Assembly (NCBI GenBank): GCA_963767605.1
Contig: CAVYEP010000014.1
Coordinates: 106,696-170,695, forward strand
Direction of reading: 5' to 3'
Source: an uncultured Acidobacteriaceae bacterium
Lineage (GTDB): Bacteria > Acidobacteriota > Terriglobia > Terriglobales > Acidobacteriaceae
Length of the DNA: 64,000 nucleotides
Position numbers and translations under genes: made by a program. Below are positions 12,238 through 60,162 of this stretch, piece after piece. Each line of letters starts with the position of its first letter. The stretch's first letter is position 1. A model generated the notes under the pieces. That model was not told where the DNA came from. It made no database searches and worked only from the letters and a program-made list of their open reading frames with translations.

Positions 12238-12335
12238 ATTTGTAATTTGTAATTTCCAATTTGTAATTGCAAGCATGGGCAATGTGAGCGACATATTCTG
12301 AAACAATTGCAAATTACGAATTACCAATTACAAAT
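12238..12335. repeat. word-periodic hairpin (TTTGTAA heptads) in the ABC ATPase-permease spacer
   Basis: Left arm 12238..12272: atttgtaatttgtaatttccaatttgtaattgcaa. Right arm 12307..12335: ttgcaaattacgaattaccaattacaaat. 34-nt loop. Confidence 0.85.
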
Positions 12336-12337
12336 TT

Positions 12338-13124
12338 TCAGCGTTTGAGCACGGCCTCATCGATCTCACCGGTCATGCGGAAGTAAAAAGACCGCAGAGC
12401 TTCGGCGCTTTCGCCGTCCCTCACCGGGCGGTCGGCGAGCAATTCGCCGCGATGCAGCAGGAGCAGGCGATCCGCAACGGCGGCCGCCTCCGCGAAATTG
12501 TGAGTGGCGAGCAGAACGGTGGTCTCTTGCCGTGCCAAGGCGCGGATCGTCGCCCAGAAGTGTGCCGTGGTGGCCGCGTCGAGGCTGCGCGTCGGTTCGT
12601 CGAGCAAGCAGAACGCTGGGGCGCTTGACCAGGGCGCGCGCGATCCCCAGCCGCTGGTACATGCCGCTGGAGAACTTCATGACCAGCGTGTCGGCCTGCT
12701 CTTCGAGGCCGGTATCGCGGAGAACTTCGTTGATTCTTTGCGCGCGCTCGCGGTGCGACACTTCGTCAAGCGCGGCAAAGAAATCAAGGTTCTCGCGAGC
12801 CGAGAGTCGAGGGAAGAATGAGCGCTCCGCTGCGACAGCGATGCCGACCTGCCGCCGCACTTCACCGGCGTTGCGCCGCGCATCGAAGCCGCCCACGCGC
12901 ACCGATCCGGCATCGGGCAAGCAGCATGGTCGAAATCAGCTTGAGGGCCGTGGTTTTTCCGCTGCCGTTCGGGCCGAGTAACACCAATACCTCCGCGCGC
13001 GCCGCCGAGAAAGAAACGTCTTTCAAGGCAAGGTTTCGCCGCCCCGCTCCCGTCCCAGCCAATTGAACAGAGCTGGACGATGGCGAAAGATCTTGCGAAC
13101 GGATTCGAAGACGACTCGGTCCAT
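12338..13124 (-). pseudogene. ABC transporter ATP-binding protein, frame broken three times
   Basis: ATG 13124 gives MDRVVFESVRKIFRHRPALFNWLGRERGGETL. This is followed by LKDVSF..LLGPNGSGKTT (Walker A), FSSGMYQRLGIARAL and LLLDEPT (Walker B). Joins near 13030, 12915 and 12608. Confidence 0.8.
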
Positions 13125-13254
13125 GAAAGCGGGACGACGAACCAGCGTGAACTAAACGTTCGAACGTGCCGAGGACTCTGTATTATAGTGGCGATTCGCA
13201 ATCCAATTGATTCCGGCTTGCAGTTGCTTGTCTATCCGTCGGGATCCGCTGTTC

Positions 13255-14456
13255 ATGACCGAAGGCTTGCCTTCGTCTCCTGCGTCAAGCACAGTGCCGC
13301 GGGGTGAAAACGAATTCGAGCTCTTGTGCGCGCTGACTGGCGTGGAGTTGGCTCCGGAGCGTGATCGAGCGCATTGCGAACTGGAATCTCTCAAGACTCG
13401 ACTGGAGCGAATTCCTTCGCCTGGCGGAGCACCATGGAGTTCTTCCGCTCGCGGCGCGCAATCTGATCGAACACGGTCGCGGGCTTCCACCCGAAATCGA
13501 GCGCTCTCTGCGATCTGCGTACGACGCGAACCTGCGGCGCAGCCTGTGGTTCACCGCCGAACTGGCGCGCATCATGCAGCACTTCGAGCGCAGGCAGTTG
13601 CGGGCAGTTCCGTACAAAGGGCCGGTGCTGGCGCAATCGGCTTACCGCGATGTGGGGCTGCGAAGTTTTTCGGATCTCGACTTCCTGATTTCTCCCGCGG
13701 ACTTCGAGACGGGCGAAGCAGGCTCTTGCTGAAATCGGATATCGCCCTTCCGCGGATTTCACTCCGGCCGTCGAGCGATTCTGGCTGCCGAAAGGCTACG
13801 AGCGCTCGTTTGACAGCGCAGCGGGACAGAACCTGGTCGAACTGCAGTGGGCGTTGCTGCCGCATTTCTATGCAGTGGATCTGCGCGTGGCGGATCTGCT
13901 GGCGCGCGCGGGCCGGACAGTTGTGGGCGGGTGCGAGGTGCCTTGCCTGTCTCCCGAAGATTCGCTGCTGGTGCTGTGCTTGCATGCCGCAAAGCATCTT
14001 TGGACGCGCCTGATCTGGCTGGCGGACATTGCGGAGACTTTGCAATCCCAATCCCGATCCCAGACCATCGACTACTCGCTGGTGTTCTCCCGAGCGCGCG
14101 CGCTGGGAATCGCTCGTATTCTCGGCGTGAGTTTCTGGCTGGCGAAGAACGTGCTTCGGACGGAGCTTCCCAGCCCGCGGAGGAAATGATTGCGGCCGAT
14201 CCTCGGGTGCCTGCTCTCGGCAGCGAATTTGCCGAGCGCCTGGCGCGCGGCGCGACCTATGATTTCGAATCCACGGAATACTTCCGACTGATCCTGAAAC
14301 TGCGCGAGCGGCGCGGCGACCGCTGGCGATATCTCTGGCGGCTGGTGTGGACGCCGGGCGCGGGAGATGTTGCGGCGGTGCAGATTGCCGGAAGCGCTTT
14401 TTCCTCTTTATCGAATCGTGCGCATTGGGCGGCTGCTGCGAAAGTCCCACTTGTAG
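13255..14456 (+). pseudogene. nucleotidyltransferase-family protein (PF14907-like, the type found beside HprK-like kinases), frame broken about 4 times
   Basis: Segments: MTEGLP...ELLCALTG; LDWSEFLRLAEHHGVLPLAARNL...VPYKGPVLAQSAYRDVGLRSFSDLDFLI; LSPEDSLLVLCLHAAKH; and the terminal ...LPEALFPLYRIVRIGRLLRKSHL, ending at TAG 14454..14456. Joins near 13370, 13712, 14172 and 14384. Confidence 0.65.
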
Positions 14457-14535
14457 AGACGGGGCTTGCCCCGTCTCCCGCCTGCGTGTTCGCGCTGCGA
14501 CCAGGGGAGACGCGGCAAGCCGCGTCTCTACAGGG
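14453..14535. repeat. inverted pair of GC-rich REP-like palindromes (GAGACG[CG]GG-CWWG-CC[CG]CGTCTC)
   Basis: Cores at 14456..14477 (gagacggggcttgccccgtctc) and 14507..14528 (gagacgcggcaagccgcgtctc). The pair overlaps the nucleotidyltransferase stop and lies between convergent genes. Confidence 0.9.
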
Positions 14536-14586
14536 ACGCGTTATTGCTAGTGCGTTTCCCCGTCGCCAGGCGCGACGTCTGGCGTG

Positions 14587-16783
14587 TCAACTTTCTTCTG
14601 CGCAACGGCCGTGTTCCCTGGCGCCGGCGCCGGCTGGAAATTCGCCGGGATCTTTGCCGGCCAGCGCGACGTTCATGAACTGCATCCAGATGGGCAGAGC
14701 GGCGCGGGCTCCGGTTTCTTTTTCGCCCAGCGATTTCTTTTCGTCGTAGCCGATCCACACGCCGCAAGTGAGCGACGGCGAAAAGCCCACGAACCAGGCG
14801 TCGGTGAAATCGTTGGTCGTGCCCGTCTTGCCCGCCAGCGGATACGGCATTTTGGCGGCGGCGACCGCGGTGCCGTGGAGCACCACTTCCCGCAGCATCG
14901 AGGTCATGATGCGCGCGGTGCGCGAGCTGACCGCGTCTTTAACGTCGGAGAAATCTTCTTCCAGAATGCGCCCTTCGTAGTCGGTCACTTTGGTGATGTA
15001 GCGCGGGGCGACGCGCACGCCGTCGTTGGGAAACACGCTGAAGGCCGAGGTCTGCTCGAGCGGCGTGATTTCCGCCGAGCCCAGCGCCACCGGAAGATAG
15101 GCGGGAATGTTTGCGGTGATGCCGAAGCGGTGCGCGTAGTCGATCACGGTCTTGATGCCGACGCGGTCGGCAAGCTTGAGCGCGGGAATGTTTCTGGACT
15201 GGGCGAGCGCGCGCCGCAGCGTGATCGTGCCCTCAAATTTGTCGTCGTAGTTGTGCGGCGAATAAGGGCCGGAGGCGGTTTGGAAAGTTACCGGCGCGTC
15301 GAGAATCGTGTCGTCGGGGCTGCCGCCCTGGTCGATCACCGCGGTATAGACATAGGGCTTGAACGACGACCCAACCTGGCGCAGCGCCTGCGTGGCGCGG
15401 TTGAACTTGGAGAGATTGAAGTCGCGGCCGCCGACCATGGCCTTGATTTCTCCGGTGGCGTTGTCGATGGCGACCAGCGCTCCTTCGGCGCCGGAATCCT
15501 GTTCCAGGCTGACGCGCGCTTTTCCGCCTGCATCCAGCGCGAGCACTTTGACGTAGACGATGTCGCCGGCATGGAGAATGTCGGGAGGCTTGAGCTTGCA
15601 GCTTCGTCCATGCGACGTCGGCCGGCGAGAGCGTGGCCTTGTGCTGCCCGAAGCGGACCTCCGCGGCGCCCGGCGAGACTTGCGTCACCAGCGCGTGCAT
15701 GTATCCGTTGACTTCGGGCTCTTCATCCCAATCGGGATCGACGTACTTGTCGAGCTTCTGCCCCTGGGCAATCACGTTCACGAGCTTGCCGTGCCAGCCG
15801 TGCCGGCGCTCGTAGGCGGCGAGGCCGTCGAGCAGCGCCTGGCGCGCCGATTTCTGCAGATCCATGTCGAGCGAGGTGTAAACGCGCAGCCCGCCTTCGT
15901 GCACCTGGTCGCTGCCATACTTCGCTTCCAGGTAGCGGCGGATTTCCTCGACATAGTGCGGAGCCAGCGAATTCGGATCTTTCTGCAGGTTGAGCGGGAT
16001 CGGCTTGCTCTTGGCGTCCGCCGCTTGGGCGGCGGTGATCTTGCCGTCCTCCAGCATGGCATTGAGCACGAGGTTGCGCCGCTTGACCGCGCGTTCCGGA
16101 TGGTTGATCGGCGAGTAATACTGCGGCGCCTTGGGAAGTCCCGCGAGCAGCGCGGCCTCTTCCAGTTTCAGTTGCTTGGCCGGTTTGCTGAAATAGTATT
16201 CCGAAGCGGCTTCAAAGCCGTAGGCGCCGTGGCCGAGAAAAATCTGGTTGGCGTAGAGCGTGAAGATCTGCGGCTTGGTGAAGCGGCGCTCGATCTGGAT
16301 GGCAAGCAGCGCCTCCTGCACCTTGCGATAAAACGAGCGGTCGGGAGAGAGAAACAGATTGCGGGCGAGCTGCATGGTGAGCGTGGAGGCTCCCTGCACT
16401 TTCCCGCCGGATTCGATATCGCGATACGCCGCGCCTGCGATGCGCCAGAGGTTGATGCCCGAGTGCCGGTAGAAATCCTTGTCTTCGATCGAGACCAGCG
16501 CATTGCGCAGAACTTCGGGATAGTCGTCATAGGTGGCGATGACGCGGCGCTGCAGCGCGAAGGTGCCGATGACTCGCCCTTGTCCGTCATAGAGTTCGGT
16601 GACGGAACTGGGACGGTAACGTTCGAGTTGCTCGACCTGGGGCAGGTCGGTCGAGTAGACCAGCAGCAGCCCGGCGGCCGCGCCCACCGCGGCGGCGAGC
16701 AGGACGAGCAATCCGAACAGGACGAGTCCCACCAACTTCCGTCCGCCAATTTTTATCGTTAGCAAGATGTTGGCAGGTTTCAA
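14587..16783 (-). pseudogene. mrcA: class A penicillin-binding protein (PBP1A: transglycosylase + transpeptidase), frame broken once
   Basis: GT51 motifs EDKDFYRHSGIN, GASTLTMQLARN and RKVQEALLA. Transpeptidase motifs SSFKP, SRN and KTGTT. Join near 15596 (...ADVAWTKLQ/LKPPDILHAGDIVYV...). The start codon (TTG 16783) is uncertain. Confidence 0.85.
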
Positions 16784-16810
16784 GGTTTCAAAGTTTCAAC
16801 GTTTCCATGG
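16773..16810. repeat. word-periodic repeat (AAGGTTTC octads), left half
   Basis: gcaggtttc aaggtttc aaagtttc aacgtttc. The complementary cctgaaactctgaaacctgc lies at 16960..16979. Confidence 0.75.
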
Positions 16811-16915
16811 TACGCAAAGGCATAGAAACTGTTTCACCGCCGAGACGCCGAGGACGCCGAGAAGAGCTGGTGCTTGCCAAGTCCTATAGGCAAGCAATGT
16901 CAAAGTCCTCTCCAC

Positions 16916-16955
16916 AAAAAAAATCGCCCGCCGAAGCGAGCGATTCGCAATTTTT
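16916..16955 (-). terminator. intrinsic (bidirectional-type) terminator downstream of the S41 peptidase-like gene
   Basis: A8 run 16916..16923, stem aatcgcccg/cgagcgatt (16922..16945), then T5 at 16951..16955. On the minus strand the hairpin is followed by U8. Confidence 0.75.
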
Positions 16956-16983
16956 AAATCCTGAAACTCTGAAACCTGCTTTC

Positions 16984-18212
16984 TTATCCCTTCGATTCCC
17001 GGTTCTTCAACACTTCCAGCGCTTTGTTCAGCTGGTCGTCCTCCTGGTTCTTCGGTTTCACTTCTTTCTTCTCGTTGGGAGCCGCCGTCTGGTCTTCGTC
17101 GGGTAATCCACCGTCGTCGTCCGCAGTGTCGGCGATCAGCACGTTGGGCGTGACGGCCGCATCCTGAATTGCTTTTCCGCTGGGCGAGTAATACTTCGCG
17201 ACCGAAAGAATCAGGGCGGAGTTGTCCTGCATCTCGATCAGTTTCTGCACCGAGCCGTCGCCGAAAGTCTTGTCGCCGACCACGTCGCCGCGAGCGTTTT
17301 CCAGGATCGCGGCGGCCACAATCTCCGCCGGTCCCGCCGTGCCACGATTCACCAGCACCGCCACGGGAAGCTTGGTGATGTCCTTGGCGGGATCGGCGTT
17401 AAACGCCTGGCGCGGATATTTCTGCCCCTGCAGATAGGTGATGGTGCCATGGTCGAGGAAAAGATTGGCGGTGGCAATGCCTTCCGACTTCGGCTCCACC
17501 GGCGGAGTTGCGCAGGTCAAGCACAAGCTTCTTCGCTCCCTGCTTCTGCAGATCGCGAATCTTGCTGGCGATCTCCTGCGACTTGCCTTCGGGGAACGCG
17601 TCCACCTGGATGTAGCCGACGTTATCGGCCAGCATCTTTTCGCTAACGGGAGGGATGGCGACCACGTCGCGCGTGATCACGATCTTCTGCGGTTCGGCTC
17701 GCCGCGGCCGGACCACCGCCACAGTTGATCGTAGATCCAACCTCGCCCGTCAGGAGGCTGTGAATCTCAGCCAGCGACATGTCGTGCGTGGTCTTGCCCT
17801 CGATCGACTCGATGATGTCGGAGTTCTCGACGCCGGCCTTGTCCGCCGGGCCGCCGGGAATCACCGCGACCACGGCCGCGTATCCGAAGCGCTTGGAGAC
17901 GGTGGCGCCGATATCCGCCTTGCCGTCGGTCTTCATCGTCTTGTAGCGCTTGTACTCAGCCGCCGACAGGTAGCTGGAATTGGCGTCGAGCGACTCCAGC
18001 AGTCCGTGCAGCGCGCCGTCGGTGACGCCGGCAATATTGGGCTCTTCGACGTATTCGAGGCGGATGCGCGACAGCACTTCGCTGTACACCGACAACTGGC
18101 GATACGCGCCTTCATTCGAAGAAGCGCGAACGTGGACGAAACCGCCCACGATGGTGAACAGCAGAATGGCCAGCGAACTGGCAAGGATGGTGACCTTCAA
18201 CTTCGTCGACAT
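16984..18212 (-). pseudogene. S41 (C-terminal processing peptidase, CtpA-like) homologue with PDZ domain; frame broken twice and catalytic residues apparently substituted
   Basis: ATG 18212 (MSTKLKV, TM anchor). PDZ-like ...VIPGGPADKAGVENSDIIESIEG. S41 core ...VAVLVNRGTAGPAEIV...VGDKTFGDGSVQ. Joins near 17725 and 17510. Confidence 0.75.
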
Positions 18213-19632: not shown

Positions 19633-19692
19633 AGTCGTTGGTCGTCAGTCGTTGGGAAGACATTGCTAACGACCAACGACTAGCGACCAGCG
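19633..19692. repeat. word-periodic hairpin (GTCGTTG heptads)
   Basis: Left arm agtcgttggtcgtcagtcgttggg. Right arm ctaacgaccaacgactagcgaccagcg. Confidence 0.85.
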
Positions 19693-19727
19693 GCTGTTTC
19701 TGGTCCCTGCCGAACTGAATTCTGCTG

Positions 19728-23172: not shown

Positions 23173-23243
23173 AACCACAGGGTACACAGAGGTACACAGG
23201 GGTTTCTAGGTTTTCCCCTGTGCACCTCTGTGTACCCTGTGGT
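23173..23243. repeat. AACCACAGRGG...CCYCTGTGGT palindromic element (28-bp arms, 1 mismatch)
   Basis: Left arm 23173..23202: aaccacagggtacacagaggtacacagggg. Right arm 23215..23243: cccctgtgcacctctgtgtaccctgtggt. Confidence 0.9.
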
Positions 23244-24681: not shown

Positions 24682-24768
24682 GCGTCGTTGGTCGTTAGTC
24701 GTTGGTCGTTAGGCAGGAACTGCGCTCATCCGCAACCCGCGAACGACTAGCGACCAACGACTATCGAC
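24682..24768. repeat. word-periodic hairpin (GTCGTTG heptads) filling the hslV-hslU spacer
   Basis: Left arm 24682..24713: gcgtcgttggtcgttagtcgttggtcgttagg. Right arm 24738..24768: cgcgaacgactagcgaccaacgactatcgac. Same word family as 19633..19692. Confidence 0.9.
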
Positions 24769-25358
24769 TAGAGCTCCTCAATCGTTACCTTGTCATTGGT
24801 ATAGATGCACATCCGGCCGGCAATCTTCATTGCTTCTTCGGCAATTTCGCGTGGCGAGAGCTGGGTGTGATCGGCGAGGGCCTGCGCTGCGGCCTGGGCA
24901 AACGGGCCGCCGGAGCCGATTGCTGCAATGCCGGTATCGGGCTCGATCACGTCTCCCTGGCCGCTGAGCAGGAACGTCGTTTCTTTGTCTGTGACCAGCA
25001 GCAGGGCTTCGAGATGGCGCAGAAATTTGTCGGTGCGCCAGTCTTTTGCCAGTTCGACGGCGGCGCGGCCGAGGTTGCCGTGATACTGCTCCAGTTTGGC
25101 CTCGAAGCGGCTGAACAGAGTGAAAGCGTCGGCGGTCGAGCCGGCAAATCCGGCTAGAATTTTATCTTGATAGAGGCGGCGAATTTTTTTTGCTCCGTGC
25201 TTGATGATGGATTCACCGAGCGTGACCTGGCCGTCGCCAGCCATGACAACTTTATTGTCGCGGCGGACGCAGAGGACGGTGGTGGAGCGAATGAGGCGGC
25301 GAGCGCGGACTTCGGCGGTCCTTTTGGCGGCCGTGGCTACTAGTGTGTTCTTCTTCAT
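24768..25358 (-). CDS. hslV: ATP-dependent protease subunit HslV, with a ~25-residue N-terminal extension
   Basis: ...[25 protein letters not shown]...[15 protein letters not shown]...[12 protein letters not shown]...AIGSGG. The only in-frame start upstream of the TT nucleophile position is ATG 25358. Confidence 0.9.
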
Positions 25359-29390: not shown

Positions 29391-30977
29391 TTGCCGCCAT
29401 CATCTACTGGACCTGCCGCCGGCACCGTACGTACTTCTGACAGCCAACTTCTCTGTTGCAAGTCCATCGACAAACTGATCTCGGAATCGCAGAACCCGGA
29501 ACACCGGCTCAGTAAGACGCTGGGGCCGTGGTCGCTGACGGCGCTCGGCATCGGCGCCATTATCGGTTCGGGAATTTTCGTGCTTACGGGAACAGCGGCG
29601 GCGGGAGAATATTTCCAGGCGCCTTCCCTCCTGCACGCGCAGGCGCTTGACGTGATCGTGAATTTCCTGCGCACCGGCAGCACCGCCGGAGCGCTGATGC
29701 ATGGCCGTCCACCGGCCGGGCCTTCGATTGCAATTTCGTTTTTCCTGGTGGCGATTGCCTGCAGTTTTGCCGGATTATGCTACGCCGAGTTGGCGTCGAT
29801 GATTCCCATCGCCGGCAGCGCCTACACCTATTCGTATGCAACGCTTGGCGAGATTTTTGCCTGGATCATCGGCTGGGACCTGATTCTCGAATACGTGGTC
29901 AGTAACGTCGCGGTTGCGGTGGGCTTCGCCGGTTATACGAAAGCGCAATTCGCGGCCTTCGGTGTCCACTTGCCCGACAAATGGGCGAGCCCCGTCTGGG
30001 CCTCGGGACAGTGGACGGGCGCGTACTTCAATCTGCCCGGCTTCCTGATCGTTTTCATTCTCACGCTGTTGCTGGTACGCGGGGTGAAGGAATCGGCCGA
30101 GACTAATAACATCATGGTCGCGGTCAAGATCGGCGCGATTCTCACCTTCCTGGTGGTCGGTGGAATGTTGGTAAGGCCCGCGAACTGGACGCCCTTCGCG
30201 CCTTCGGGCTTTGCCGGAATCGTTACGGGCGGCGCAATCGTTTTCTTTACCTACATCGGATTCGATTCGGTGTCGACCGCCGCGGAGGAATCGCGCAATC
30301 CACAGAAAGACTTGCCCTTCGGCATCATCATGTCGCTGATTGTCTGCACGCTGTTGTATGTCGGCGTCGCTTTGGTGCTGCTCGGCATGATGAAGTACAC
30401 GACGTTTGTCTCCGGGGAAGCCGCCGAAGCGCCCGTCGCCTACGCGATGAAGTATCTGGGAGTGCACCCGTTCTTCCGGTCGATAATCGTGATCGGAGCG
30501 CTGACGGGGATGATCTCTTCGTTGCTGGTGTTTCAGTACGGGCAAGCGCGCATCTGGTACGCCATGTCGCGCGATGGCCTGCTGCCGAAGCTGTTCTCGG
30601 CGGTGCACCCGAAATATAAGACTCCGCATTGGTCCACGTGGATCGCCTGTTTTGCCGTGGGAATTCCCGCTGGGCTGGTGGATATCGGCGACGCTGCCGA
30701 CCTCGCCAACATTGGGACGCTGTTTGCCTTTGTGCTGGTCTCGCTGGGAGTCATTTTTCTCCGACGCAGGCAGCCCGATCGCAAGCGCGCCTTCCGCGTG
30801 CCGTTTGTGCCGTGGTTCCCGCTGATGTCCGTGATACTGTGCGGCGGACTAATGTTCGGGCTGACGTTGATTACCTGGCTGCGCTTTGTGATCTGGCTGG
30901 CACTGGGGTTGGTCATCTACATCTTCTACAGCCGGCATCACAGCGAATTTTGCAAGAAGGATCGGGCCATCGGGTGA
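29391..30977 (+). CDS. APC-superfamily amino-acid permease (cationic amino-acid transporter-like)
   Basis: 528 aa, about 12+ TM. ...KSIDKLISE...LSKTLGPWSLTALGIGAIIGSGIFVLTG... GAGGAG lies 10 nt upstream of the TTG start at 29391. Confidence 0.85.
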   Translation: MPPSSTGPAAGTVRTSDSQLLCCKSIDKLISESQNPEHRLSKTLGPWSLTALGIGAIIGSGIFVLTGTAAAGEYFQAPSLLHAQALDVIVNFLRTGSTAGALMHGRPPAGPSIAISFFLVAIACSFAGLCYAELASMIPIAGSAYTYSYATLGEIFAWIIGWDLILEYVVSNVAVAVGFAGYTKAQFAAFGVHLPDKWASPVWASGQWTGAYFNLPGFLIVFILTLLLVRGVKESAETNNIMVAVKIGAILTFLVVGGMLVRPANWTPFAPSGFAGIVTGGAIVFFTYIGFDSVSTAAEESRNPQKDLPFGIIMSLIVCTLLYVGVALVLLGMMKYTTFVSGEAAEAPVAYAMKYLGVHPFFRSIIVIGALTGMISSLLVFQYGQARIWYAMSRDGLLPKLFSAVHPKYKTPHWSTWIACFAVGIPAGLVDIGDAADLANIGTLFAFVLVSLGVIFLRRRQPDRKRAFRVPFVPWFPLMSVILCGGLMFGLTLITWLRFVIWLALGLVIYIFYSRHHSEFCKKDRAIG

Positions 30978-30997
30978 TCGGGCCATCTGGTCATCTG
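30958..30997. repeat. word-periodic repeat (ATCGGGNN octads) overlapping the permease stop
   Basis: ggatcgggccatcgggtgatcgggccatctggtcatctg. Confidence 0.75.
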
Positions 30998-31060
30998 TAG
31001 TGTTCTCATTTCTAGGAACTCATCGCATTCTCGTGTCCTAATGGATAGAATTCAATCCTT

Positions 31061-31381
31061 ATGCTGCTTCCGTTCATGGGACTTTTCATGTTTTTTATTC
31101 CGTTGGCTGGATTCTTGTCTGGAATTGTATTGTTGTGTATCAGACGCTTGCGTTTTATGGCGCCGTTCGCGTTCCTTGTGCCACTTCTGGGTTCGTATGC
31201 AGCGTTGGCGGGCCTTTGGGGCACTGGGCTGGGTTTGGAGCGCCTGGGCTTTCATGGATGGGTCGTTGGTACAATGGCATGCCTCGGCTTCGTTATTAGC
31301 GGAGGTCTGGGTTGTGCTGCAGGTCTCGCCGGCGGCTTTGCTCTGACTCTTGCCGGTCGCCGACTGAAGCACCGACACTAA
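31061..31381 (+). CDS. small hydrophobic membrane protein (function unknown)
   Basis: 106 aa with 3-4 predicted TM segments. Locally low GC. Flanked by ATCGGGNN-word repeats. Confidence 0.45.
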   Translation: MLLPFMGLFMFFIPLAGFLSGIVLLCIRRLRFMAPFAFLVPLLGSYAALAGLWGTGLGLERLGFHGWVVGTMACLGFVISGGLGCAAGLAGGFALTLAGRRLKHRH

Positions 31382-31412: not shown

Positions 31413-31495
31413 CCGGGCCATCATGTCATCGGATGATCGGGCCATCTGTTTCTGATTTTGAACTTAGATCACCCGATGGTCGGATGACCCGATTG
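31413..31495. repeat. word-periodic imperfect hairpin (ATCGGGNN words)
   Basis: Left arm ccgggccatcatgtcatcggatgatcgggccatctg. Right arm agatcacccgatggtcggatgacccgattg. Shares gatcgggccatctg with 30958..30997. Confidence 0.75.
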
Positions 31496-39805: not shown

Positions 39806-39811
39806 GGAAAA

Positions 39812-39870
39812 CCGTTGTCAGTTATCAGTTATCAGTAAAACCCGCACTGAGAACTGACAACTGAAAACAA
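39812..39870. repeat. word-periodic hairpin (GTTATCA heptads) just after lptB
   Basis: Left arm ccgttgtcagttatcagttatcagt. Right arm actgagaactgacaactgaaaacaagg. Confidence 0.8.
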
Positions 39871-40040
39871 GGTTTCCGGTTACCAAGGCGTAGTCGCATT
39901 GACCTTTCGTGTCGACGCGATCTACCTCGGTGCATGAGAAGCTAAGTTTTCCACACTCGGAAGTGCAGAAGCGTAAGGTGCGCCGGGTGGGTGAAGAACG
40001 ATAGGCATTAGACTGCCAGTTCCCCCTGACTCTAACAGGG

Positions 40041-40067
40041 CACTGACAACTGGCAACTGGCAACTGC
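40041..40067. repeat. word-periodic half element (CTGGCAA/CTGACAA heptads) just before rpoN
   Basis: cactgacaactggcaactggcaactgc. Same orientation as the right arm at 39846..39870. Confidence 0.7.
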
Positions 40068-40079
40068 TTTTAAGGGGAG

Positions 40080-41973: not shown

Positions 41974-42056
41974 AGTCAGAAGTCAGAAGTCAAATTGAAG
42001 AAGTAAAACCAATTCGCCTTTACTTCTTCAATTTGACTTCTGACTTCTGACTTTTT
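41974..42056 (+). terminator. perfect 34-bp-stem hairpin + T-run after rpoN (AGTCAGA heptad family, copy 1)
   Basis: Left arm 41974..42007: agtcagaagtcagaagtcaaattgaagaagtaaa. 11-nt loop. Right arm 42019..42052 is its exact reverse complement, followed by tttt. Confidence 0.85.
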
Positions 42057-42683: not shown

Positions 42684-42687
42684 GGAA

Positions 42688-42790
42688 AGTCAGAAGTCAG
42701 AAGTCAGATTGAAGAAGTAAAACGAGTAGAACCCAGTTGTCCACGCTCGCATTCACTTCTTCAATTTGACTTCTGACTTCTGACTTTTTG
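42688..42790. repeat. AGTCAGA heptad-family hairpin, copy 2, after hpf
   Basis: Left arm 42688..42721: agtcagaagtcagaagtcagattgaagaagtaaa. Right arm 42755..42785: acttcttcaatttgacttctgacttctgact, then ttttgcat. Same tail as copy 1. Confidence 0.9.
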
Positions 42791-45152: not shown

Positions 45153-45421
45153 AATTTCGTATCAGGGTATCGCTTTAGCGATACCGCATTTCATCGAACT
45201 GAATGCCCCTTTAGGGGTGCGCGTGAGAACTACTCTTTCGCCCCGCTGGGGCTGCATGATTTACCACTTTTTACCCACGGCTTGCGCCGTGGGCTGCATT
45301 CTTACGCCGCTTCGCGGCTAAAAATCTGGAGCATTGCTCCACCGCGTCGGCGAAACTCACGCACACACTTTAGGGGCTGGGCGTCGAAGCGTGCAAGCCG
45401 GCAGAGCCTGATACAATTTCG
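45153..45421. repeat. ~270-bp composite of short GC hairpins with imperfect terminal inverted repeats (MITE-like)
   Basis: Ends aatttcgtatcagg (45153..45166) and cctgatacaatttcg (45407..45421). Internal hairpins: ggtatcgc-ttta-gcgatacc, gcccc-ttta-gggg, cccacggc-ttgc-gccgtggg, gccgc-ttc-gcggc. One frame reads PTACAVGCILTPLRG*. Confidence 0.7.
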
Positions 45422-47175: not shown

Positions 47176-47209
47176 GGGTGAACTTTTCTGGACTACCGTC
47201 GAAAGGCAT

Positions 47210-47288
47210 TACCACAGAGGTCACAGCGGTACACAGAGGAAACCCCACGCATATCTTAGATTCTCCTCTGGGCCCTCTGTGGTTAAGG
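47210..47288. repeat. AACCACAGAGG-family palindromic element
   Basis: Left arm taccacagaggtcacagcggtacacagaggaaacccc. Right arm ctcctctgggccctctgtggttaagg. Overlaps the stop of the minus-strand gene at 47283. Confidence 0.85.
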
Positions 47289-48080
47289 TTTTGTTCTTTC
47301 GCGCAACACTCGCTTCCGCGTGGCAACCGGCAGCGTTTCGCACGCCGCGCGCAGCACCCGTCGCGGCGCGTTTCTTCGGATCCTCATCAAGTAAGGCACG
47401 GTGCGCTTCGGATCGGCTTTCGCAGTCTCGCGCAACAGCCAACCCAATCCCTTCTGCACCATGTCGTCCTCGTCAAGCAGCAAACGATTGGAAAGCCGCA
47501 CGATCTCGGCAAAGAACCGGCGCTCGCGCGCTCCCCGGATCAGCGCCACACACGCCGCGCGCCGCCGCCAGCGATTCCGCGACTTCGCCCAGCGGAATAC
47601 CTCGCGGCAACGGGCAGTCTTGGCGGCCACCATCGGCGCCAACAGATAATGCGCCAGCGCGTCGTGATCGGCCCAACTGGTCACGCGGTCGAGCCACGAG
47701 GTAAAGAGCTTAAATTCATTGTCGCCAAAATTCTCAGTTTGTTTTTCGAGCAGGAAAACCGCCATCACCTTCTCTTCCAGAATCCGGCCGGAGAAAAGTT
47801 GGTCCGCGACCTGTACCAGGAATTCCATCCCCCGTTCGCGAGCGATCGCGCGCCGGAACCGCGCCGCAAATCTTCTGAGTTCGGCCGTGTACCAGCCGCG
47901 CGATTGGATTTCTTCCTTGAAAAAGCGCTGCACGTCTTCCGAGTGCGGGGCGGACCCGCCATCCTTCAGCACGCGCCGGATGTGGTCCGCAATGTAGTTG
48001 GGTGTGACTTTGCTCTTGGACACGTTCTCCTCAGGTAGCCACTCGCGTCTCCGCGCGTCGGTGTGCGGAGAGTTGCTCAT
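47283..48080 (-). CDS. DNA alkylation repair enzyme-like HEAT-repeat protein
   Basis: From ATG 48080. ...VQRFFKEEIQSRGW...VTSWADHDAL...MVQKGLGWLLRE... pattern as in the PF08713-type family (recognised by eye). Confidence 0.6.
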   Translation of the reverse strand: MSNSPHTDARRREWLPEENVSKSKVTPNYIADHIRRVLKDGGSAPHSEDVQRFFKEEIQSRGWYTAELRRFAARFRRAIARERGMEFLVQVADQLFSGRILEEKVMAVFLLEKQTENFGDNEFKLFTSWLDRVTSWADHDALAHYLLAPMVAAKTARCREVFRWAKSRNRWRRRAACVALIRGARERRFFAEIVRLSNRLLLDEDDMVQKGLGWLLRETAKADPKRTVPYLMRIRRNAPRRVLRAACETLPVATRKRVLRERTKP

Positions 48081-50289: not shown

Positions 50290-50374
50290 TACCACAGAGG
50301 GCACAAAGATACACGGGGGATTTGCATAAATAACGTTGGGTTCCCCCGTGCACCTCCGTGCCCCCTGTGGTTAA
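50290..50374. repeat. AACCACAGAGG-family palindromic element
   Basis: Left arm taccacagagggcacaaagatacacggggga. Right arm tcccccgtgcacctccgtgccccctgtggttaa. Lies between yggU and yggS and overlaps the yggS stop. Confidence 0.9.
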
Positions 50375-51082: not shown

Positions 51083-51167
51083 AAACCACGAAGGACACAA
51101 AGTATCACGAAGGGGAACTCTCCTGAACTGGCTTCCTTCGTGAACCTTAGTGTCCTTCGTGGTTAAA
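51083..51167. repeat. AACCAC[AG][GA]AGG-family palindromic element (ACGAAGG variant)
   Basis: Left arm aaaccacgaaggacacaaagtatcacgaagggga. Right arm cttccttcgtgaaccttagtgtccttcgtggttaaa. Confidence 0.9.
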
Positions 51168-51225: not shown

Positions 51226-53281
51226 TCACATAATCGCTGTCGGCGGAGCCGGATCCTCGGGCCTGCCGGCGTTCGCCAGCGGAACGCGGATCATGACAAT
51301 CGCCAGTATGGCGAGCGCGCCGAGCGCCAGAAAGAATGACGGAGTCCACGTGAACAACGTGACGTCGCGGCCAGAGCCCACCAAAGCCGCGATGGCCAGG
51401 CCGCACAGCGCCTCGCCCGCGATCAGACCCGAGGCCGTCAGGACGCCGGCGTTTTCCACGCGCGCCTTCTGCGCATCGTTCAAGCCACGGCGATCGCGCA
51501 ACGTGTCGGTGATCCAGCGAATCACGCCTCCGATAAAAATGGCAAAGGTTGTGCCTAACGGCAGATACATGCCGACCGCAAACAGCATCACGCTCTTTAC
51601 CTCGATCATGATCATGGCCAGTCCCAAGAGGATGCCCACGATCACCAGCGGCCACGCCATGTCGCCGCCAACAATTCCCTTCGACAGCATGGCCATTAAG
51701 CCCGCCTGCGGGGCGGGAAGAGCGGGACTGCCGAAGTGATAGGCCTTATCGAGGATCGCCACGGGTACGAAAAGGACAAGCGATGCCACGACGATGCCGA
51801 AAAGATCTCCAATCTGCATCTTCGCAGGCGTGCCACCGAGGATGTGTCCGACCTTCAGGTCCTGCAGCATCTCACCCGCGACCGCCGACGAGACGCAGAC
51901 CACGGCTGCTACTCCAAGCACGGCTGCGACTCCACCGGTGCCCGATACTCCCAGAGCGACCATCAGCAGGGCGGCGATCACCAGCGTGCAGAGCGTGAGG
52001 CCCGACACGGGATTGTTCGACGAGCCGATCATCCCGACCAGATTGCCGGAAACCGCGGCGAAGAAGAATCCGACGACGATCATGACGCCAGCCGCGACCA
52101 GGGAGCCGGACAAGAATCTTGGAAGCGGAGAGGTTTCCTGCGCCGCTGATAAAGAAGTGATAGAGCAGGATCATGGCGACGAATACTACGGCGATCCCGG
52201 CGAAAACAGCTTTGGCGGGCAGGTCACGCTCGGTGCGATTGGTGGCAGCCTGCACTGCCGCCGACTTTTTCAGATCGGAAACAGCGCGGCCCATGCCGAG
52301 TGCCAATTGTTTGCGCATCTTGAAAAGCGTGTAGGTCGCGCCCACCAGCATCCCGCCGACCGCGATCGGCCGCACAATCGAGAAGTAGATCGCTTGTGCC
52401 AGCAGCGGCCAGGCGATGGTTTGTCCCTCGGGCATCGATGCCTGGATGTACGGACCGATAGTGAAGGTTAGGAGTGGAACCAGCAGGCCCCATGCCAACA
52501 CGCCTCCCGCGAAGTTCAAGGCAGCGAGTCTGGGGCCAATGATGTATCCCACGCCGAGATAGGCGGGGCTGATGTCGGGCGCCGTCATCAGTGTCGCGCC
52601 GCCGGTAATGGTCGTAGCCACGTTGGGATTTGTGCTGGTGCGGAGCAGCAGCTTCTTCCCCAAAGCGCTGATCTTCATGGGGAAGGTGTTGCTGGGATTG
52701 AATACGTTGATCGCTCCCAGGAGATACATGAACGCGCCGAAGCCCATGTTGGCGAACAGAATTTTTGCGGCCTTAGCTCCTTGTTGCCCAGCCTTGTGAA
52801 TCTCGGAGGCAGCCACGGATTCAGGAAACGGCAGATCGGGATCCTCGACCATCACGCGGCGCAGGAGGGTCACGAACAGAATGCCGAGCGTCCCGCCAAT
52901 CAACATCAGAGCTACCGACTTCCAATATTCGTCGCGAGTGAGCCCCGGCCAAATCCCGGCCATCACAAAGGCAGGGATCGTGAATATAGCGCCGGCCGCC
53001 ACCGATTCTCCAATCGAGCCCACGGTTCGCGCGATGTTCTCTTCCAGCAGCGACCCCTTCATCAAGCGCAGCAGTGCCATGGAGATGACGGCCGCCGGAT
53101 AGGTCGCGGCAATCGTCATCCCCGCCTTCAGGCCGAGGTAAGCGTTGGCCGAGCCCAACAGGGCGGTCAGGAACAGTCCGATCAGTACAGCCCGGAAGGT
53201 AAACTCCTTCATTTCCATCGTTTCTGGAACATAAGGGCGATGCTTGCGGGGAGCTTCGGTACTCGCCACAGTAGTGCTCAT
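51226..53281 (-). pseudogene. OPT-family oligopeptide transporter, frame broken once
   Basis: ORF 51872..53281 (...EFTFRAVLIGL...GLKAGMTIAATYPAAVISMA...) joins ORF 51226..52113 (...SGSLVAAGVMIVVGFFFAAVSGNLVGMIGSSNNPVSG...) near 52112. Confidence 0.8.
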
Positions 53282-54872: not shown

Positions 54873-54878
54873 AAGATC

Positions 54879-55487: not shown

Positions 55488-55541
55488 GGGGTCGAAGGCT
55501 GGCACGCAGGTTTCACTGTTTCACTAAGGACTCAAAATCAA

Positions 55542-55624
55542 ATTGTCATCCTGAGCGAAGCGAAGGACCTGCTCTCTTTTGCATCGGCAAGAAGCAGGTC
55601 TTTCGCTTCGCTCAAGATGACAAT
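55542..55624. repeat. 32-bp-arm palindromic element between convergent genes
   Basis: Left arm 55542..55573: attgtcatcctgagcgaagcgaaggacctgct. Right arm 55593..55624: agcaggtctttcgcttcgctcaagatgacaat. 2 mismatches. Confidence 0.9.
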
Positions 55625-55628
55625 CCTC

Positions 55629-56785: not shown

Positions 56786-56808
56786 GAGACGGGGCAAGCC
56801 CCGTCTAC
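56786..56808. repeat. single REP-like palindrome
   Basis: gagacgggg caag ccccgtct(a)c. Confidence 0.8.
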
Positions 56809-56850
56809 ACGAGCTCTTCCGTCCCGATACGAATGGCAGATACTCCGTGG

Positions 56851-57639: not shown

Positions 57640-57684
57640 GGCGACTCTTGTATCGCGCGGCGGGCGGCAAGTCAAACGAGGGCA

Positions 57685-57776
57685 AGCTATCAGCTGTCAG
57701 CTATCAGCTATCAGTGAGAACCGAAACGCTTAGGTTTTACTGAGAGCTGATAGCTGATAGCTGAGAGCTGACAGCT
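57685..57776. repeat. word-periodic hairpin (AGCTATC heptads)
   Basis: Left arm agctatcagctgtcagctatcagctatcagtgag. Right arm ctgagagctgatagctgatagctgagagctgacagct. Confidence 0.9.
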
Positions 57777-57812
57777 TCTCAATGGCGTAAAATTGCTGCA
57801 CTGGAAAACGCC

Positions 57813-58415: not shown

Positions 58416-58423
58416 CGCTTCCC

Positions 58424-58490
58424 GGTAGAGACGCGGCTTGCCGCGTCTCCCCGCCGCATTTAAAGAAGACGGGGCAAGCCCCGTCTCTAC
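58424..58490. repeat. inverted pair of REP-like palindromes right after a stop codon
   Basis: ggtagagacgcggcttgccgcgtctccccgcc (core 58428..58449) and gaagacggggcaagccccgtctctac (58465..58490). Confidence 0.9.
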
Positions 58491-58539
58491 TCTAGGGCGG
58501 TATAATCCACCTAAGATTTCTTCCTGTGGGGGTTCCACC

Positions 58540-60033
58540 ATGAGTGTTGCCCGGACTCTGGGCGAATTACGCCGAAGTCCTTTCACTGCCGAGCGTCTGG
58601 CTTCGCGGCGGGTAAAAGATGAGTTGCGCGAGAACTTGATGTCGCGGCTCGGCGGGGGCAGCCCGATATTTCCGGGCATCGTTGGATACGACGACACGGT
58701 GGTGCCGCAGATCGTGAATGCGATCCTCTCGCGCCACAATTTTATTCTTCTAGGACTACGCGGACAGGCGAAGAGCCGCATTCTACGCGCCCTGACCACG
58801 CTGCTTGATCCCGAGATGCCTTACGTCGCGGGCTGCGAAATCCACGATAATCCTTACACCCCGATCTGCCGGCGGTGCCGCGAACTGGTGGCGAAAGAAG
58901 CGGACGCGACGCCGATTGCCTGGCTGACGCCCGAGCATCGCTACGTCGAAAAACTGGCCACGCCCGATGTCACGATTGCCGACCTGATCGGCGATATCGA
59001 TCCCATCAAGGCGGCGCGTGGCGGGCACGAACTGTCGAGCGAGTTCACGGTGCATTACGGGTTGCTGCCGCGCGCGAATCGCGGAATTTTTGCCATGAAC
59101 GAGTTGCCCGACCTCGCGGGCAAGATTCAGGTCGGCCTCTTCAACATCATGCAGGAAGGCGACGTGCAGATTAAGGGATACCCGATCCGGCTGCCACTCG
59201 ATGTGGCGATTGTGTTCAGTGCGAATCCGGAGGATTACACCGCGCGCGGGAAGATTATCACTCCGCTGAAGGATCGTATCGGGTCGGAGATTCGCACCCA
59301 CTATCCGGCAACGGTGGAGGAAGGCATCGCGATTACCGCGCAGGAGGCCTGGATTGCGCGAGACGGATCAAGGCTGCATATCCCGAAGTATGTGCAGGAG
59401 GTGATCGAGCGCATCGCCTTCGCGGCGCGCGACGACAAGAAGATCGACAAGCGGTCGGGCGTGAGCCAGCGGCTACCAATTTCGGCGATCGAGAACGTGA
59501 TTTCGAATGCCGAGCGGCGCGCGCTGACGCATCGGGAAAAATTGATCGTGCCGCGGATCAGCGACATCTACGCCGCGCTGCCGGCAATTACGGGCAAGCT
59601 GGAACTGGAGTATGAAGGCGAAATGAAGGGCGCGGACTACGTGAGCCGCGAGTTGATCCGCACCGCGATCGCAAAGACCTTCGATACTCATCTTCACGGC
59701 GTCAACCTGAGCCAGGTGGTGCAGTGGTTCGATCTGGGCGGAGAGATTCAACTCAGCGACAATACTGGGGCCGAGGAAGTGCTCGAAGGCCTGAGCCAGA
59801 TTCAGGGTTTGATGGAAAAACTCGGCAAGCTGAACGTGAACGCGAAAGACAGCGCCGAGATGCAGGTATCGGCGGCGGAGTTCGTCCTGGAAGGCCTGCA
59901 CGCCCACAAAAAAATCGGACGCAACGAAGAGCGTGTGTTCACGGCGGGAGAAAAGCCAATCAAGGTCGCCGAGAAGCCGCCAACGTTTGAGCGGGACGAG
60001 CCGGGATTTGGACGGAAGAGAGGATTTAACTAG
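58540..60033 (+). CDS. AAA+ ATPase of the Mg-chelatase ChlI-like / MoxR-like type
   Basis: From ATG 58540 (MSVARTLGELRR...). ...IVGYDDTVVPQIVNAILSRHNFILLGLRGQAKSRI..., GIFAMNELPDL..., ...SANPEDYT.RGKIITPLKDRIG. Upstream codons of the listed ORF translate a REP element. Confidence 0.8.
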   Translation: MSVARTLGELRRSPFTAERLASRRVKDELRENLMSRLGGGSPIFPGIVGYDDTVVPQIVNAILSRHNFILLGLRGQAKSRILRALTTLLDPEMPYVAGCEIHDNPYTPICRRCRELVAKEADATPIAWLTPEHRYVEKLATPDVTIADLIGDIDPIKAARGGHELSSEFTVHYGLLPRANRGIFAMNELPDLAGKIQVGLFNIMQEGDVQIKGYPIRLPLDVAIVFSANPEDYTARGKIITPLKDRIGSEIRTHYPATVEEGIAITAQEAWIARDGSRLHIPKYVQEVIERIAFAARDDKKIDKRSGVSQRLPISAIENVISNAERRALTHREKLIVPRISDIYAALPAITGKLELEYEGEMKGADYVSRELIRTAIAKTFDTHLHGVNLSQVVQWFDLGGEIQLSDNTGAEEVLEGLSQIQGLMEKLGKLNVNAKDSAEMQVSAAEFVLEGLHAHKKIGRNEERVFTAGEKPIKVAEKPPTFERDEPGFGRKRGFN

Positions 60034-60034
60034 C

Positions 60035-60162
60035 GCTCAGCCGTCAGCTTTCAGCTATTAGTCAGAACGTCCCCCAAGGCTGACTCGGGGCCGTAAGCGA
60101 TAACCAGTGGGTGGATTTCGACAGGTTTAACTGAAAGCTGACAACTGATAGCTGATAGCTGC
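60035..60162. repeat. word-periodic hairpin (AGCT[AT]TC heptads) with a 64-nt interior
   Basis: Left arm gctcagccgtcagctttcagctattagtcaga. Right arm ctgaaagctgacaactgatagctgatagctgc. Several pairing registers are possible. Confidence 0.8.

Follow-up and report, generated by a model that had tools for sequence, protein, structure and literature searches.

Tandem-word palindromes in the intergenic spacers of Terriglobales: probable families of dispersed, REP/BIME-like repeats

A 64-kb stretch of DNA from an uncultured Acidobacteriaceae bacterium (contig CAVYEP010000014.1, positions 106,696 to 170,695; hereafter the window, G+C = 59.4%) carries, in its intergenic spacers, palindromes whose two arms are tandem arrays of 7-, 8- or ~10-nt words, complementary to each other across a centre. 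We think it probable that these represent several related families of dispersed, non-coding palindromes similar to repetitive extragenic palindromes and bacterial interspersed mosaic elements (REP/BIME), with arms that evolve by slippage. The evidence presented below points to copying plus slippage, rather than to slippage or structural selection alone. A previous, sequence-only reading of this DNA had maintained that the shared design with differing words is not explained by ordinary REP copying; this was not supported, as each word class is a dispersed repeat family whose members keep a fixed polarity (153 pairs of arms against 3).

Besides the window, we surveyed 80 related loci (1.42 Mb in total, a sample dominated by one syntenic region); in the window, the open reading frames (ORFs) next to the elements were identified by a Pfam scan. 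These related loci or contigs are designated below by L-numbers.

Anatomy and occurrence of the palindromes

A chance origin of the arrays was ruled out by shuffled controls. The window contains 13 period-7 tandem arrays and one of period 8, as compared with means of 0.2 (maximum 1) and 0.0, respectively, in 30 dinucleotide shuffles. The arrays were also reported by Tandem Repeats Finder (TRF), mostly as complementary pairs. With a hairpin finder of our own, listing every ungapped pairing register, seven clusters were found to pair in at least two registers, against a mean of 0.05 (maximum 1) irrespective of whether the whole window (20 shuffles) or the intergenic gaps in place (20 shuffles) were randomised. 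The register shifts were exact multiples of the period (7 or 8), with six registers at 57684-57777 (steps of 7), four at 12238-12336, three each at 24684 and 39814, and three at 16773-16979 (steps of 8). RNA folding yielded long hairpins at nine of 12 loci, with z scores ranging from -2.0 to -12.0. Made of head-to-tail units of 5-11 nt, intergenic and above chance expectation, the arrays belong with those described as long simple-sequence or short tandemly repeated repetitive (STRR) sequences.

Much of what the sequence-only reading had described was borne out by these tests. The words it named occur at all the coordinates it gave (by sequence and TRF), the architecture of tandem-word arms around a loop is real, the stems can literally pair in several registers, and word-periodic arrays are, within the window, far commoner than in shuffled sequence. 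Equally real are the locations it reported, namely intergenic, abutting codons and sometimes inside operons, as in hslV-[24682]-hslU and lptB-[39812...40041]-rpoN-[41974]-hpf. The architecture stands for most of its loci; their number, put at 13 or more, is reduced to 12, since 16773 and 16960 belong together as the arms of a single pair. Nor is every locus a hairpin: nine of the 12 fold as such, whereas 30958 is a solo array, 16773/16960 a distant pair and 40041 half-decayed. The arms are not periodic throughout at 41974 and 42688, where only three words per arm are accompanied by a non-periodic inner stem. Four palindromes with words of about 10 nt (CACAGRGGTA type) had been overlooked. The elements of the window are as follows (z, z score of the fold).

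12238-12336: tandem-word palindrome, word ATTTGTA, period 7, about 4.4 + 4.6 copies (TRF, inverted-repeat search); arms 12238-12269 and 12304-12336, centre about 34 nt; registers 0, 7, 14 and 28; z -3.2; 30 nt 3' of the stop of a minus-strand ABC_tran fragment ORF.
16773-16979: two 8-mer arrays forming a distant pair, AGGTTTCA x3.9 (16773-16805) and, complementary to it, GAAACYYT (16952-16979; TRF); about 150 nt between the arrays, with other short repeats and a GC hairpin; 3 registers; between convergent genes. The 16773 word family also fills the rpoN-hpf spacer of L003 and L005 and the lptB-rpoN spacer of L012 and L026.
19633-19695: tandem-word palindrome, GTCGTTG, period 7, about 3 copies per arm, centre about 12-17 nt (TRF, inverted-repeat search); z -3.6.
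23174-23243: palindrome of ~10-nt words, three per arm, CCACAGGGTA CACAGAGGTA CACAGGGG (inverted-repeat search). Compared with L169 2760-2830, from the same species, it shows four changes, all uncompensated; the hslV-hslU heptamer palindrome shows none.
24682-24771: tandem-word palindrome, GTCGTTG/GTCGTTA, period 7 (or 14 if the words are taken to alternate), each arm with about 4 copies; z -3.9; minus strand, filling the intra-operon hslV-hslU spacer from the stop codon of hslV until 5 nt short of the hslU ATG (Pfam Proteasome and AAA_2 flanks). It is 100% identical in the same-species contig L169, which is 96.9% identical overall.
30958-30995, plus strand: solo 8-mer array, ATCGGGNN x4.4, of 5'-arm type (TRF); covers the last ~6 codons and the stop of an amino-acid permease ORF, and alone forms no hairpin (z -0.8).
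31413-31492: tandem-word palindrome, period 8, belonging to the ATCGGGNN family and containing its conserved centre ATCTG..TTGAACTTAGAT; z -4.0; can be aligned end to end with 7 copies located in other spacers and genomes.
39806-39877: tandem-word palindrome, GTTGTCA/GTTATCA (CAGTTNT class), period 7, with 3 copies in each arm and a loop of 9 nt (TRF, 3 registers); z -5.6; begins directly after the lptB stop, the variable word position forming a 1x1 mismatch in each word. Relatives have at this site the CAGTTCT, CAGTTGC or ATCGGGNN class, or nothing.
40013-40066: half-decayed palindrome, 3' array ACTGACA ACTGGCA ACTGGCA ACTG (reverse complement of the CAGTTGC class; TRF, sequence), remnant 5' arm CTGCCAGTTCC (40013-40026); the array is followed by CTTTT, a Shine-Dalgarno (SD) sequence and the rpoN start. 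The pre-rpoN hairpin is complete in L081, L082 and L084.
41972-42053: perfect palindrome, 35-bp arms, 100% complementary, made of GAAGTCA x3 and the inner stem AATTGAAGAAGTAAA, 11-nt centre; fills the rpoN-hpf spacer, with A-run and T-run flanks; fold -55.7 kcal/mol, z -12.0.
42686-42787: second AGAAGTC-family copy, arms ~94-97% like those of 41972-42053, with an unrelated 30-nt centre; z -10.9; fills the stop-to-stop spacer of the convergent hpf and EAL-domain genes, where relatives have four other classes.
47202-47292, 50291-50371 and 51084-51164: sister copies of the 23174 palindrome, same architecture with the longer period.
57684-57777: tandem-word palindrome, AGCTATC/AGCTGTC (CAGCTNT class), 4.3 + 5.3 copies (TRF, 6 registers); z -8.3; between divergent genes (Pfam adh_short, minus strand, and LON_substr_bdg, plus strand).
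60032-60161: tandem-word palindrome, CAGCTNT class, structured centre of 70-80 nt (TRF, inverted-repeat search); z -2.0; the 3' arm end ...GCTGCTTTT directly precedes an ATG at 60167.

Across the window and the 80 loci there were 56 clean period-7/8 hairpins, all of them outside called genes (0/56 intragenic). The gap to the left ORF had a median of 5 nt and was 10 nt or less in 71% of cases. Element length had a median of 93 bp and the centre one of 30 nt (range 4-189 nt); arms contained a median of 4.1 (5') and 3.9 (3') words, with a mode of about four, and the period was 7 in 51 elements and 8 in 11. Altogether we counted 199 intergenic arrays, about 0.7 per kb of non-coding sequence in this sample; 122 had a complementary partner within 200 nt, and 50 were solo. 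The elements took up stop-to-start or stop-to-stop spacers almost wholly.

The closest relatives of the window LptB (39077-39805) are encoded in soil and peat metagenome-assembled genomes (MAGs) of Terriglobales/Acidobacteriaceae, the best with 99% amino-acid identity. In these, the orthologous lptB-rpoN and rpoN-hpf spacers hold the same architecture with other words, or nothing. The 7-mers observed there were GTTCTCA, GTCGTTG, CAGTGGC, AGCTCTT and TTAGGTC, and the 8-mers AAGGTTTC, ATCGGGNN and NNGTAATT; because such words recur at other loci of the window, the classes are dispersed families of one clade. More distant Acidobacteriaceae (L048-L080) were largely devoid of word arrays. One of them, L058, carries at a contig end (13961-14071) a perfect microsatellite of ~16 copies of CTTGGTA, as compared with the 3-5 copies typical of palindrome arms. 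A word palindrome of L058 (1422-1512) has a 3' arm, (AATCACA)3, identical to the WATCACW heptad to which the omega repressor of pSM19035 binds, possibly by coincidence.

Copying, turnover and slippage

When arms were compared between elements, those identical at 12/14 positions or more shared the same polarity in 153 pairs and had opposite polarity in 3; at 14/14 the figures were 44 and 0. A whole-element consensus exists for at least one family, ATCGGGNN: eight of its elements, located in four different spacers of the window and five MAGs, can be aligned from end to end and have a conserved, non-periodic centre that is itself palindromic. Similarly, the two AGAAGTC copies flanking hpf (41972 and 42686) are alike in their arms inclusive of the non-periodic inner stem. 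L014 and L024 each have an AGAAGTM hairpin whose loop harbours an element with ~10-nt words. Metatranscriptome assemblies from soil and peat (assembled contigs of related strains) showed arm sequences at ~10x the depth of their flanks and continuing into many different flanks, implying that the family is multi-copy in the community.

The classes are not sharply separated. Single linkage at 12/14 united 27 elements of the GTCGTTG, CAGTCGT, CAGTTNT, CAGCNNT and CAGTGGC classes into one cluster, so that word classes grade into each other, and many elements have in common a frequent core, TCAG in the 5' arm and CTGA in the 3' arm. As to whether all copies reduce to one conventional consensus, each class does reduce to a family consensus; no single consensus spans the classes. 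We dropped a universal word consensus, YRG-YNNT, as its phase had been self-chosen and an unbiased analysis placed the variable column differently in different classes; only the TCAG/CTGA core is claimed. A common inner-stem motif, AGTAAAAC/GTTTTACT, was likewise abandoned as a general feature, being present on one side in 6/56 hairpins and on both sides in 0/56.

Polarity, whole-element alignment, the shared inner stem, nesting and metatranscriptome depth together exclude an independent local origin of the elements. A purely local mutational process, in which slippage could start from any seed and strand-switch replication would add the inverted copy with no copying between loci, must therefore be deemed highly improbable. 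One-word indels were indeed seen (below), and the empty site of L003 retains a single word-like remnant beside the stop; moreover, heptanucleotide arrays are, as Mrazek (2007) is cited in PMC4679880, the commonest long simple repeats in many bacteria, with slippage as a proposed cause. Such a process, however, accounts neither for the fixed polarity and the conserved, non-periodic ATCGGGNN centre nor for the recurrence of words over dozens of genomes and spacers.

The occupancy of individual spacers changes rapidly. The sequence-only reading had called for a comparison of orthologous spacers, and this disclosed differences among relatives both in presence or absence and in class. Six contigs that encode an identical LptB protein, with DNA ~85-93% identical, had several different classes per spacer. 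The hpf-EAL stop-to-stop spacer contained an element of the AGAAGTC, CAGCTCT, CAGCCGT, ATCGGGNN or CAGCCAT class, and the rpoN-hpf spacer one of AGAAGTC, AGAGGTC or ATCGGGNN. The permease-deaminase spacer was empty, or contained an AGAAGTC hairpin, or ATCGGGNN arrays together with an ORF. In the window this is a 101-aa hydrophobic ORF with no Pfam match (31041-31346), bracketed by the ATCGGGNN solo array (30958) and the ATCGGGNN hairpin (31413); the whole insert of ~460 nt is missing in L081-L083, in which the spacer is 72 nt long (AGAAGTC hairpin) or nearly empty. BLAST alignments of relatives to the window end exactly at element-bearing spacers, and genomes ~92% identical have different families in the same spacer. 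Turnover is thus fast between species; it is not visible in the one same-species comparison (L169). The lptB-rpoN spacer of L083 is a mosaic of an L082-like and an L002-like half, consistent with a redistribution of spacer alleles between lineages by homologous recombination.

No target-site duplications were detected: the best flanking direct repeats had lengths of 0, 2, 3 and 4 nt in 21, 23, 8 and 4 cases, in agreement with the expectation from shuffled partners (17, 24.9, 10.7 and 2.6, plus 0.7 at 5 nt). This argued against a DDE-type miniature inverted-repeat transposable element.

Slippage, which the sequence-only reading had invoked, is real, because near-identical genomes differ by exactly one word. 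L083 has one word more in the 3' arm of the lptB element than the otherwise near-identical L082; at the pre-rpoN site L082 has four words and the window three; and in rpoN-hpf L084 has one CTGACCT more than L082. The number of words in orthologous TCAGTTC hairpins is 2, 3 or 4, both arms being altered together, and overall the copy numbers of the two arms correlate (r = 0.60). The AGAAGTC and AGAGGTC variants have the same position changed in all words of both arms, as a result either of concerted evolution or of a sister subfamily having taken their place. Variation within an element is confined mostly to one or two word columns (196 transitions and 177 transversions, i.e., 53% transitions), and in the predicted stems the hypervariable column often corresponds to a 1x1 mismatch recurring in each word.

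On the copying-plus-slippage reading, the elements would spread as DNA by copying, either by means of a mobiliser that produces no target-site duplication or by recombination or conversion, and homologous recombination between lineages would then reshuffle the spacer alleles. The periodic arms would evolve by replication slippage within the element, their complementarity presumably being kept by DNA-level processes (copying of the unit, correction within the palindrome) and not by selection on a sense transcript. Any putative role as a 3'-end barrier, partial terminator or translation-start modulator would be secondary.

Transcripts, binding proteins and a possible mobiliser

Alternatively, the hairpins might be RNA elements selected for their structure, such as bidirectional or U-tract-poor terminators, 3'-end stabilisers or processing sites, with periodicity as a quick way of making a stem. 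We regard this as unlikely. The predicted hairpins are strong; they lie right after stops and, where genes converge, extend exactly from one stop to the other; a few copies (41972, 42686, 40066 and 60161) have A-run/T-run flanks; and arms do turn up in the metatranscriptome assemblies. In addition, terminator-like sites of the canonical kind were not in excess over shuffles in the scanned region (23 vs 22.8), so that a terminator of another type could be required.

Nonetheless, the elements themselves did not qualify as canonical intrinsic terminators (GC-rich stem, 3-8-nt loop, sense U-tract). A simple terminator scan called none of them between 41000 and 60999. At least 4/6 T downstream occurred in 33% of cases on the sense strand and in 42% on the antisense strand; for convergent and divergent spacers the figures were 33% and 19%, and for the background 12% (at least 5/6 T, sense: 11%). 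The enrichment is mild and symmetric between strands. Selection on RNA structure would predict, on the sense strand, more G:T than A:C mismatches; we counted 26 vs 31 in co-oriented spacers (p = 0.6) and 45 vs 44 overall. Divergent spacers were not depleted, hosting 8/53 elements as compared with 145/775 background gaps (tandem/convergent/divergent: 36/9/8 for elements, 507/123/145 for gaps). Many copies lie within conserved operons and reach the next start codon, the predicted stems often leave the hypervariable word position unpaired, and identical words with fixed polarity at unrelated loci are not predicted by RNA-level selection. A search of the whole window with Rfam at the gathering score gave no match on the word palindromes, and a permissive scan of 39800-40090 only sub-threshold microRNA and CRISPR direct-repeat look-alikes on the hairpin. 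Selection for structure over sequence, at least at the RNA level, the other mechanism put forward in the sequence-only reading, finds no support in the mismatch, T-tract and divergent-spacer counts; the signatures are strand-symmetric and DNA-level.

A second alternative, to which we attach a similarly low likelihood, is that the arrays are tandem sites for DNA- or RNA-binding proteins, for example nucleoid-associated ones of the IHF/HU type, which had been suggested for Geobacter, or cooperative binders with one dimer per 7-8 bp, like ribbon-helix-helix proteins; pairing of the arms would then be a by-product or serve looping. Binding of one protein per word to tandem 7- or 8-bp sites is established for the omega heptads and the MetJ metboxes. 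The conserved word cores with one hypervariable position each would fit such sites, as would the mode of about four words per arm (similar in Xanthomonas and, with 3-5 words, in Geobacter), the strand-symmetric features, the 50 solo arrays and the fact that divergent, promoter-bearing spacers are hit at the background rate. Some words are also common to two phyla, namely CTTCTGA and, in arrays resembling them, TCTCCGTS (L049, L057) and GTTGCTYN (L054, L062). However, more than eight word classes in 64 kb would require many cognate proteins, and complementarity extends through the non-periodic inner stems, up to perfect 35-bp arms. Likewise, the class differs at the same spacer in close relatives, which would not be expected of a gene-specific site, and within the window no link was visible between word class and the function of neighbouring genes as judged by Pfam.

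If the palindromes are copied as DNA, an enzyme may be involved, and Y1 transposases of the RAYT/TIRYT type were considered as candidates. None was present among the window ORFs scanned with Pfam. A tblastn search with E. coli RayT and four acidobacterial TIRYTs (Di Nocera et al. 2013, Additional file 5; PMC3733652) gave one partial match in 1.5 Mb of loci, with non-word flanks. A metagenome scan returned 80 TIRYT loci (L089-L168), in which ~60 acidobacterial Y1 genes were flanked by GGGTGCCCC-tagged hairpins. Examples of these hairpins are GGGTGCCCCAGGTCTCGCTTTTGAGACCTGGG (L090 1860-2130, L095 1-414, L112 3000-3300), and they often form tandem clusters of 3-4 copies beside the gene; in the window the GGGTGCCCC tag was not enriched. 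Given these flanks, the TIRYT group is not the evident mobiliser, and we rejected it as such with one exception, L109/L111. In L109 (1490-1560 and 2085-2175; = L111), inverted arrays of ~10-nt words, six to eight in number (TATAGCTTTT / AAAAGCTATA type), lie on both sides of a TIRYT gene; this was the only Y1 transposase gene seen between tandem-word arms. No parent insertion sequence (IS) with the same termini was seen in the ~1.5 Mb of loci, which contain no whole genome.

Other known classes of repeat were discarded on the basis of anatomy. There is no R'/R'' core as in integron attC sites, and there are no regularly spaced direct repeats as in CRISPR. A G-quadruplex reading was discarded for lack of G-tracts: GTCGTTG, CAGYNNT, AGAAGTC, AAGGTTTC and TTTGTAA are without GGG, and ATCGGGNN is the only word with it, once per word.

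Several observations weigh against copying plus slippage as the full account. The Pfam-scanned ORFs of the window include no transposase or other mobilising gene, and the terminal inverted repeats at the ~60 TIRYT loci are tagged hairpins rather than word arrays. The paralogues 41972 and 42686 are alike in their arms and unrelated in their centres, which is awkward for a simple cut- or copy-and-paste of the whole unit. Many independent elements begin exactly at stop codons, and this would call for a strong target preference, replacement of resident hairpins or selection. Slippage alone is insufficient to make one or two word positions hypervariable while the others are kept; a fixed word core with a variable position hints at recognition by some factor. 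Finally, the sample comprises only ~1.5 Mb around one syntenic region, not whole genomes.

Known systems and the rpoN neighbourhood

The closest precedent is provided by the class 1-3 paired sites of Geobacter metallireducens (Aklujkar et al. 2009, PMC2700814), i.e., 24 pairs of four GTTGCTYN octamers, 21 of three TCTCCGTS[Y] and 8 of five MTYCTGA, on opposite strands at variable distance, all intergenic and including an intra-operon case, proB-proA. Their authors called the classes evolutionarily related and hypothesised binding by unknown global regulators. As in our sample, each site has 3-5 tandem words of 7-9 nt (median 4.1/3.9 here), and the sites form opposite-strand intergenic pairs (122/199 arrays paired within 200 nt here, centres 4-189 nt). 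Class 3, which reads 5' (TCAGRAK)n ... (MTYCTGA)n 3' over ~80-115 nt (PMC2700814), has the same word and polarity as 41972-42053 and 42686-42787, (GAAGTCA)3...(TGACTTC)3 being equivalent to TCAGAAG/CTTCTGA (Gmet_I301-I308). Arrays similar to classes 1 and 2 are found in Terriglobales too, AGTTGCT in L054 and L062 and TCTCCGTG in L049 and L057, as compared by consensus strings only, and the core of the ~10-nt words, CCTCTGTG, seems, by the published consensus alone, to resemble class 2 TCTCCGTS. On the other hand, the phylum is different, and at least eight 7/8-mer classes plus a 10-mer class are represented here. The Geobacter sites were interpreted as targets of proteins rather than as hairpins or repetitive sequences, and IS elements occur at a fixed distance from the class-1 sites; we saw nothing comparable.

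Also close are the GGGAATC arrays of Xanthomonas (Rehm et al. 2015, PMC4692102), mostly of ~4 units, which form 70-75 convergent inverted pairs per genome, are stem-loop-capable, lie near or overlapping stop codons, and differ in length between related species while the site is kept. They share with our elements the inverted heptamer arrays in intergenic DNA close to stops. Unlike the words described here, which lack G-tracts, theirs is a single G-rich word with G-quadruplex potential; they are scarcer between divergent ORFs, a depletion absent here; and 83% of site occupancy is conserved between Xcc and Xac, whereas our classes are swapped between relatives.

The resemblance to REP/BIME (Di Nocera et al. 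2013, PMC3733652) consists in high-copy extragenic palindromes, located in operon spacers and at gene 3' ends and often arranged as inverted dimers, without target-site duplication and with several sequence-specific families per genome. The word palindromes differ in having no GTAG/CGTC or other common tag, their ends following the word of the class; in their 75-125 bp length; in having word-array arms instead of a single imperfect palindrome of 20-40 nt; and in that no cognate RAYT was found, the acidobacterial TIRYT flanks being GGGTGCCCC-tagged. Conventional REP/BIME-type sequences, distinct from the word palindromes, do occur in the window as head-to-head pairs of GTAG-tagged hairpins (TGTAGAGACGGGGCTTGCCCCGTCTC...) at 14452-14532 and 58425-58490. 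Yet another dispersed palindromic family is represented by a long inverted repeat at 55542-55624, with arms ATTGTCATCCTGAGCGAAGCGAAGGACC, also present in L032, L035, L040, L042 and L043; in these more remote relatives the rpoN-hpf spacer contains this repeat instead of a word palindrome.

Cyanobacterial STRR heptamers were reportedly described by Mazel in 1990. The TAACTGA direct repeats of Beggiatoaceae, cyanobacteria and Bacteroidetes (MacGregor 2015, PMC4679880) abut start codons, and the same source relays the predominance of heptamers among long simple repeats in bacteria (Mrazek 2007). Similarities to STRR/TAACTGA include intergenic heptamers in 2-6 copies, often ending a few nt from a start without recognisable SD, and the words themselves (TAACTGA, compared with GAACTGA, CAACTGA and TAGCTGA here). 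By contrast, those arrays are overwhelmingly direct and unpaired, with one inverted case among 170 Beggiatoa sets (PMC4679880), and one word dominates in each genome.

The elements described here extend to a new phylum, and to many more word classes, a kind of sequence that had been recorded before and never explained. The sharing of words and polarity between phyla is the most intriguing lead. By analogy, it is conceivable, albeit improbable, that the Terriglobales palindromes, Geobacter classes 1-3, the Xanthomonas pairs and perhaps STRR/TAACTGA form one cross-phylum class of mobile DNA, handled by an enzyme that would read one word per protomer, much as the Rep protein of adeno-associated virus acts on the tandem GCTC repeats in the hairpin stem of the inverted terminal repeat. 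The periods of 7, 8 and 10 nt would then be the footprint of the protein, and a core with a free position, the mode of four words, polarity, absent target-site duplications and inter-phylum words would all find an explanation.

Irrespective of their origin, the elements make up a large share of intergenic DNA in this Terriglobales clade, including whole spacers of hslVU and lptB-rpoN-hpf. Because they fill spacers and are replaced between ~92%-identical species, they are a main driver of intergenic evolution in a group that ranks among the most abundant bacteria of soil. Considering the Terriglobales, Geobacter and Xanthomonas cases jointly makes both the dominance of heptamers among bacterial simple repeats and the nature of inverted arrays testable. 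In practice, the elements flag trouble spots of assembly and annotation, and could serve as fine-scale strain markers.

From their positions, the elements are predicted to affect transcript ends and translation starts, and rpoN offers an example. In L081 and L082, an 11-nt loss (~11000-11016; window 40066-40085) removes the SD and the original rpoN start, and the new ATG abuts the hairpin end ...CTGCTTTT, with the junction ...GCAACTGCTTTTATGCTTCTT. The same hairpin with a (C)TTTTATG junction occurs at 60161-60169 of the window and in L015 and L018, and in L012, L014, L021 and L026 an array abuts the rpoN ATG without any spacer. Between lptB and rpoN there is also a non-coding block of ~130 nt (39878-40012), conserved in L001-L009 and L081-L086, with variable hairpins on both sides. 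Its invariant stretches are GTTAC.AAGGCGT, TGACCTTTCGTG and ACCTCGGTGCATGAGAAGCTAA.TTTTCCACAC; it matches no Rfam family and could represent a small RNA, an rpoN leader or a promoter.

In the window, rpoN itself (40080-41973) is split over three frames, the ORFs 40080-40556, 40502-41350 and 41047-41973 matching in turn the Sigma54 AID, CBD and DBD domains; L082-L086 have one intact gene of 605-636 aa, and L081 has two pieces. Other ORFs look truncated as well: ABC_tran at 12366-12920 (from profile position 37), Peptidase_S41 at 16984-17526 (from position 47) and an OPT ORF at 51226-52113 (C-terminal part only). The frameshifted genes suggest an error-prone assembly, and the split or truncated ORFs are likely assembly indels, not pseudogenes. 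The repeats are unaffected by such errors, because they recur in many independent assemblies. The sole Rfam match in the window was an Acido-Lenti-1 RNA (RF01687) at 45274-45319 on the plus strand, with 50.7 bits against a gathering score of 37.

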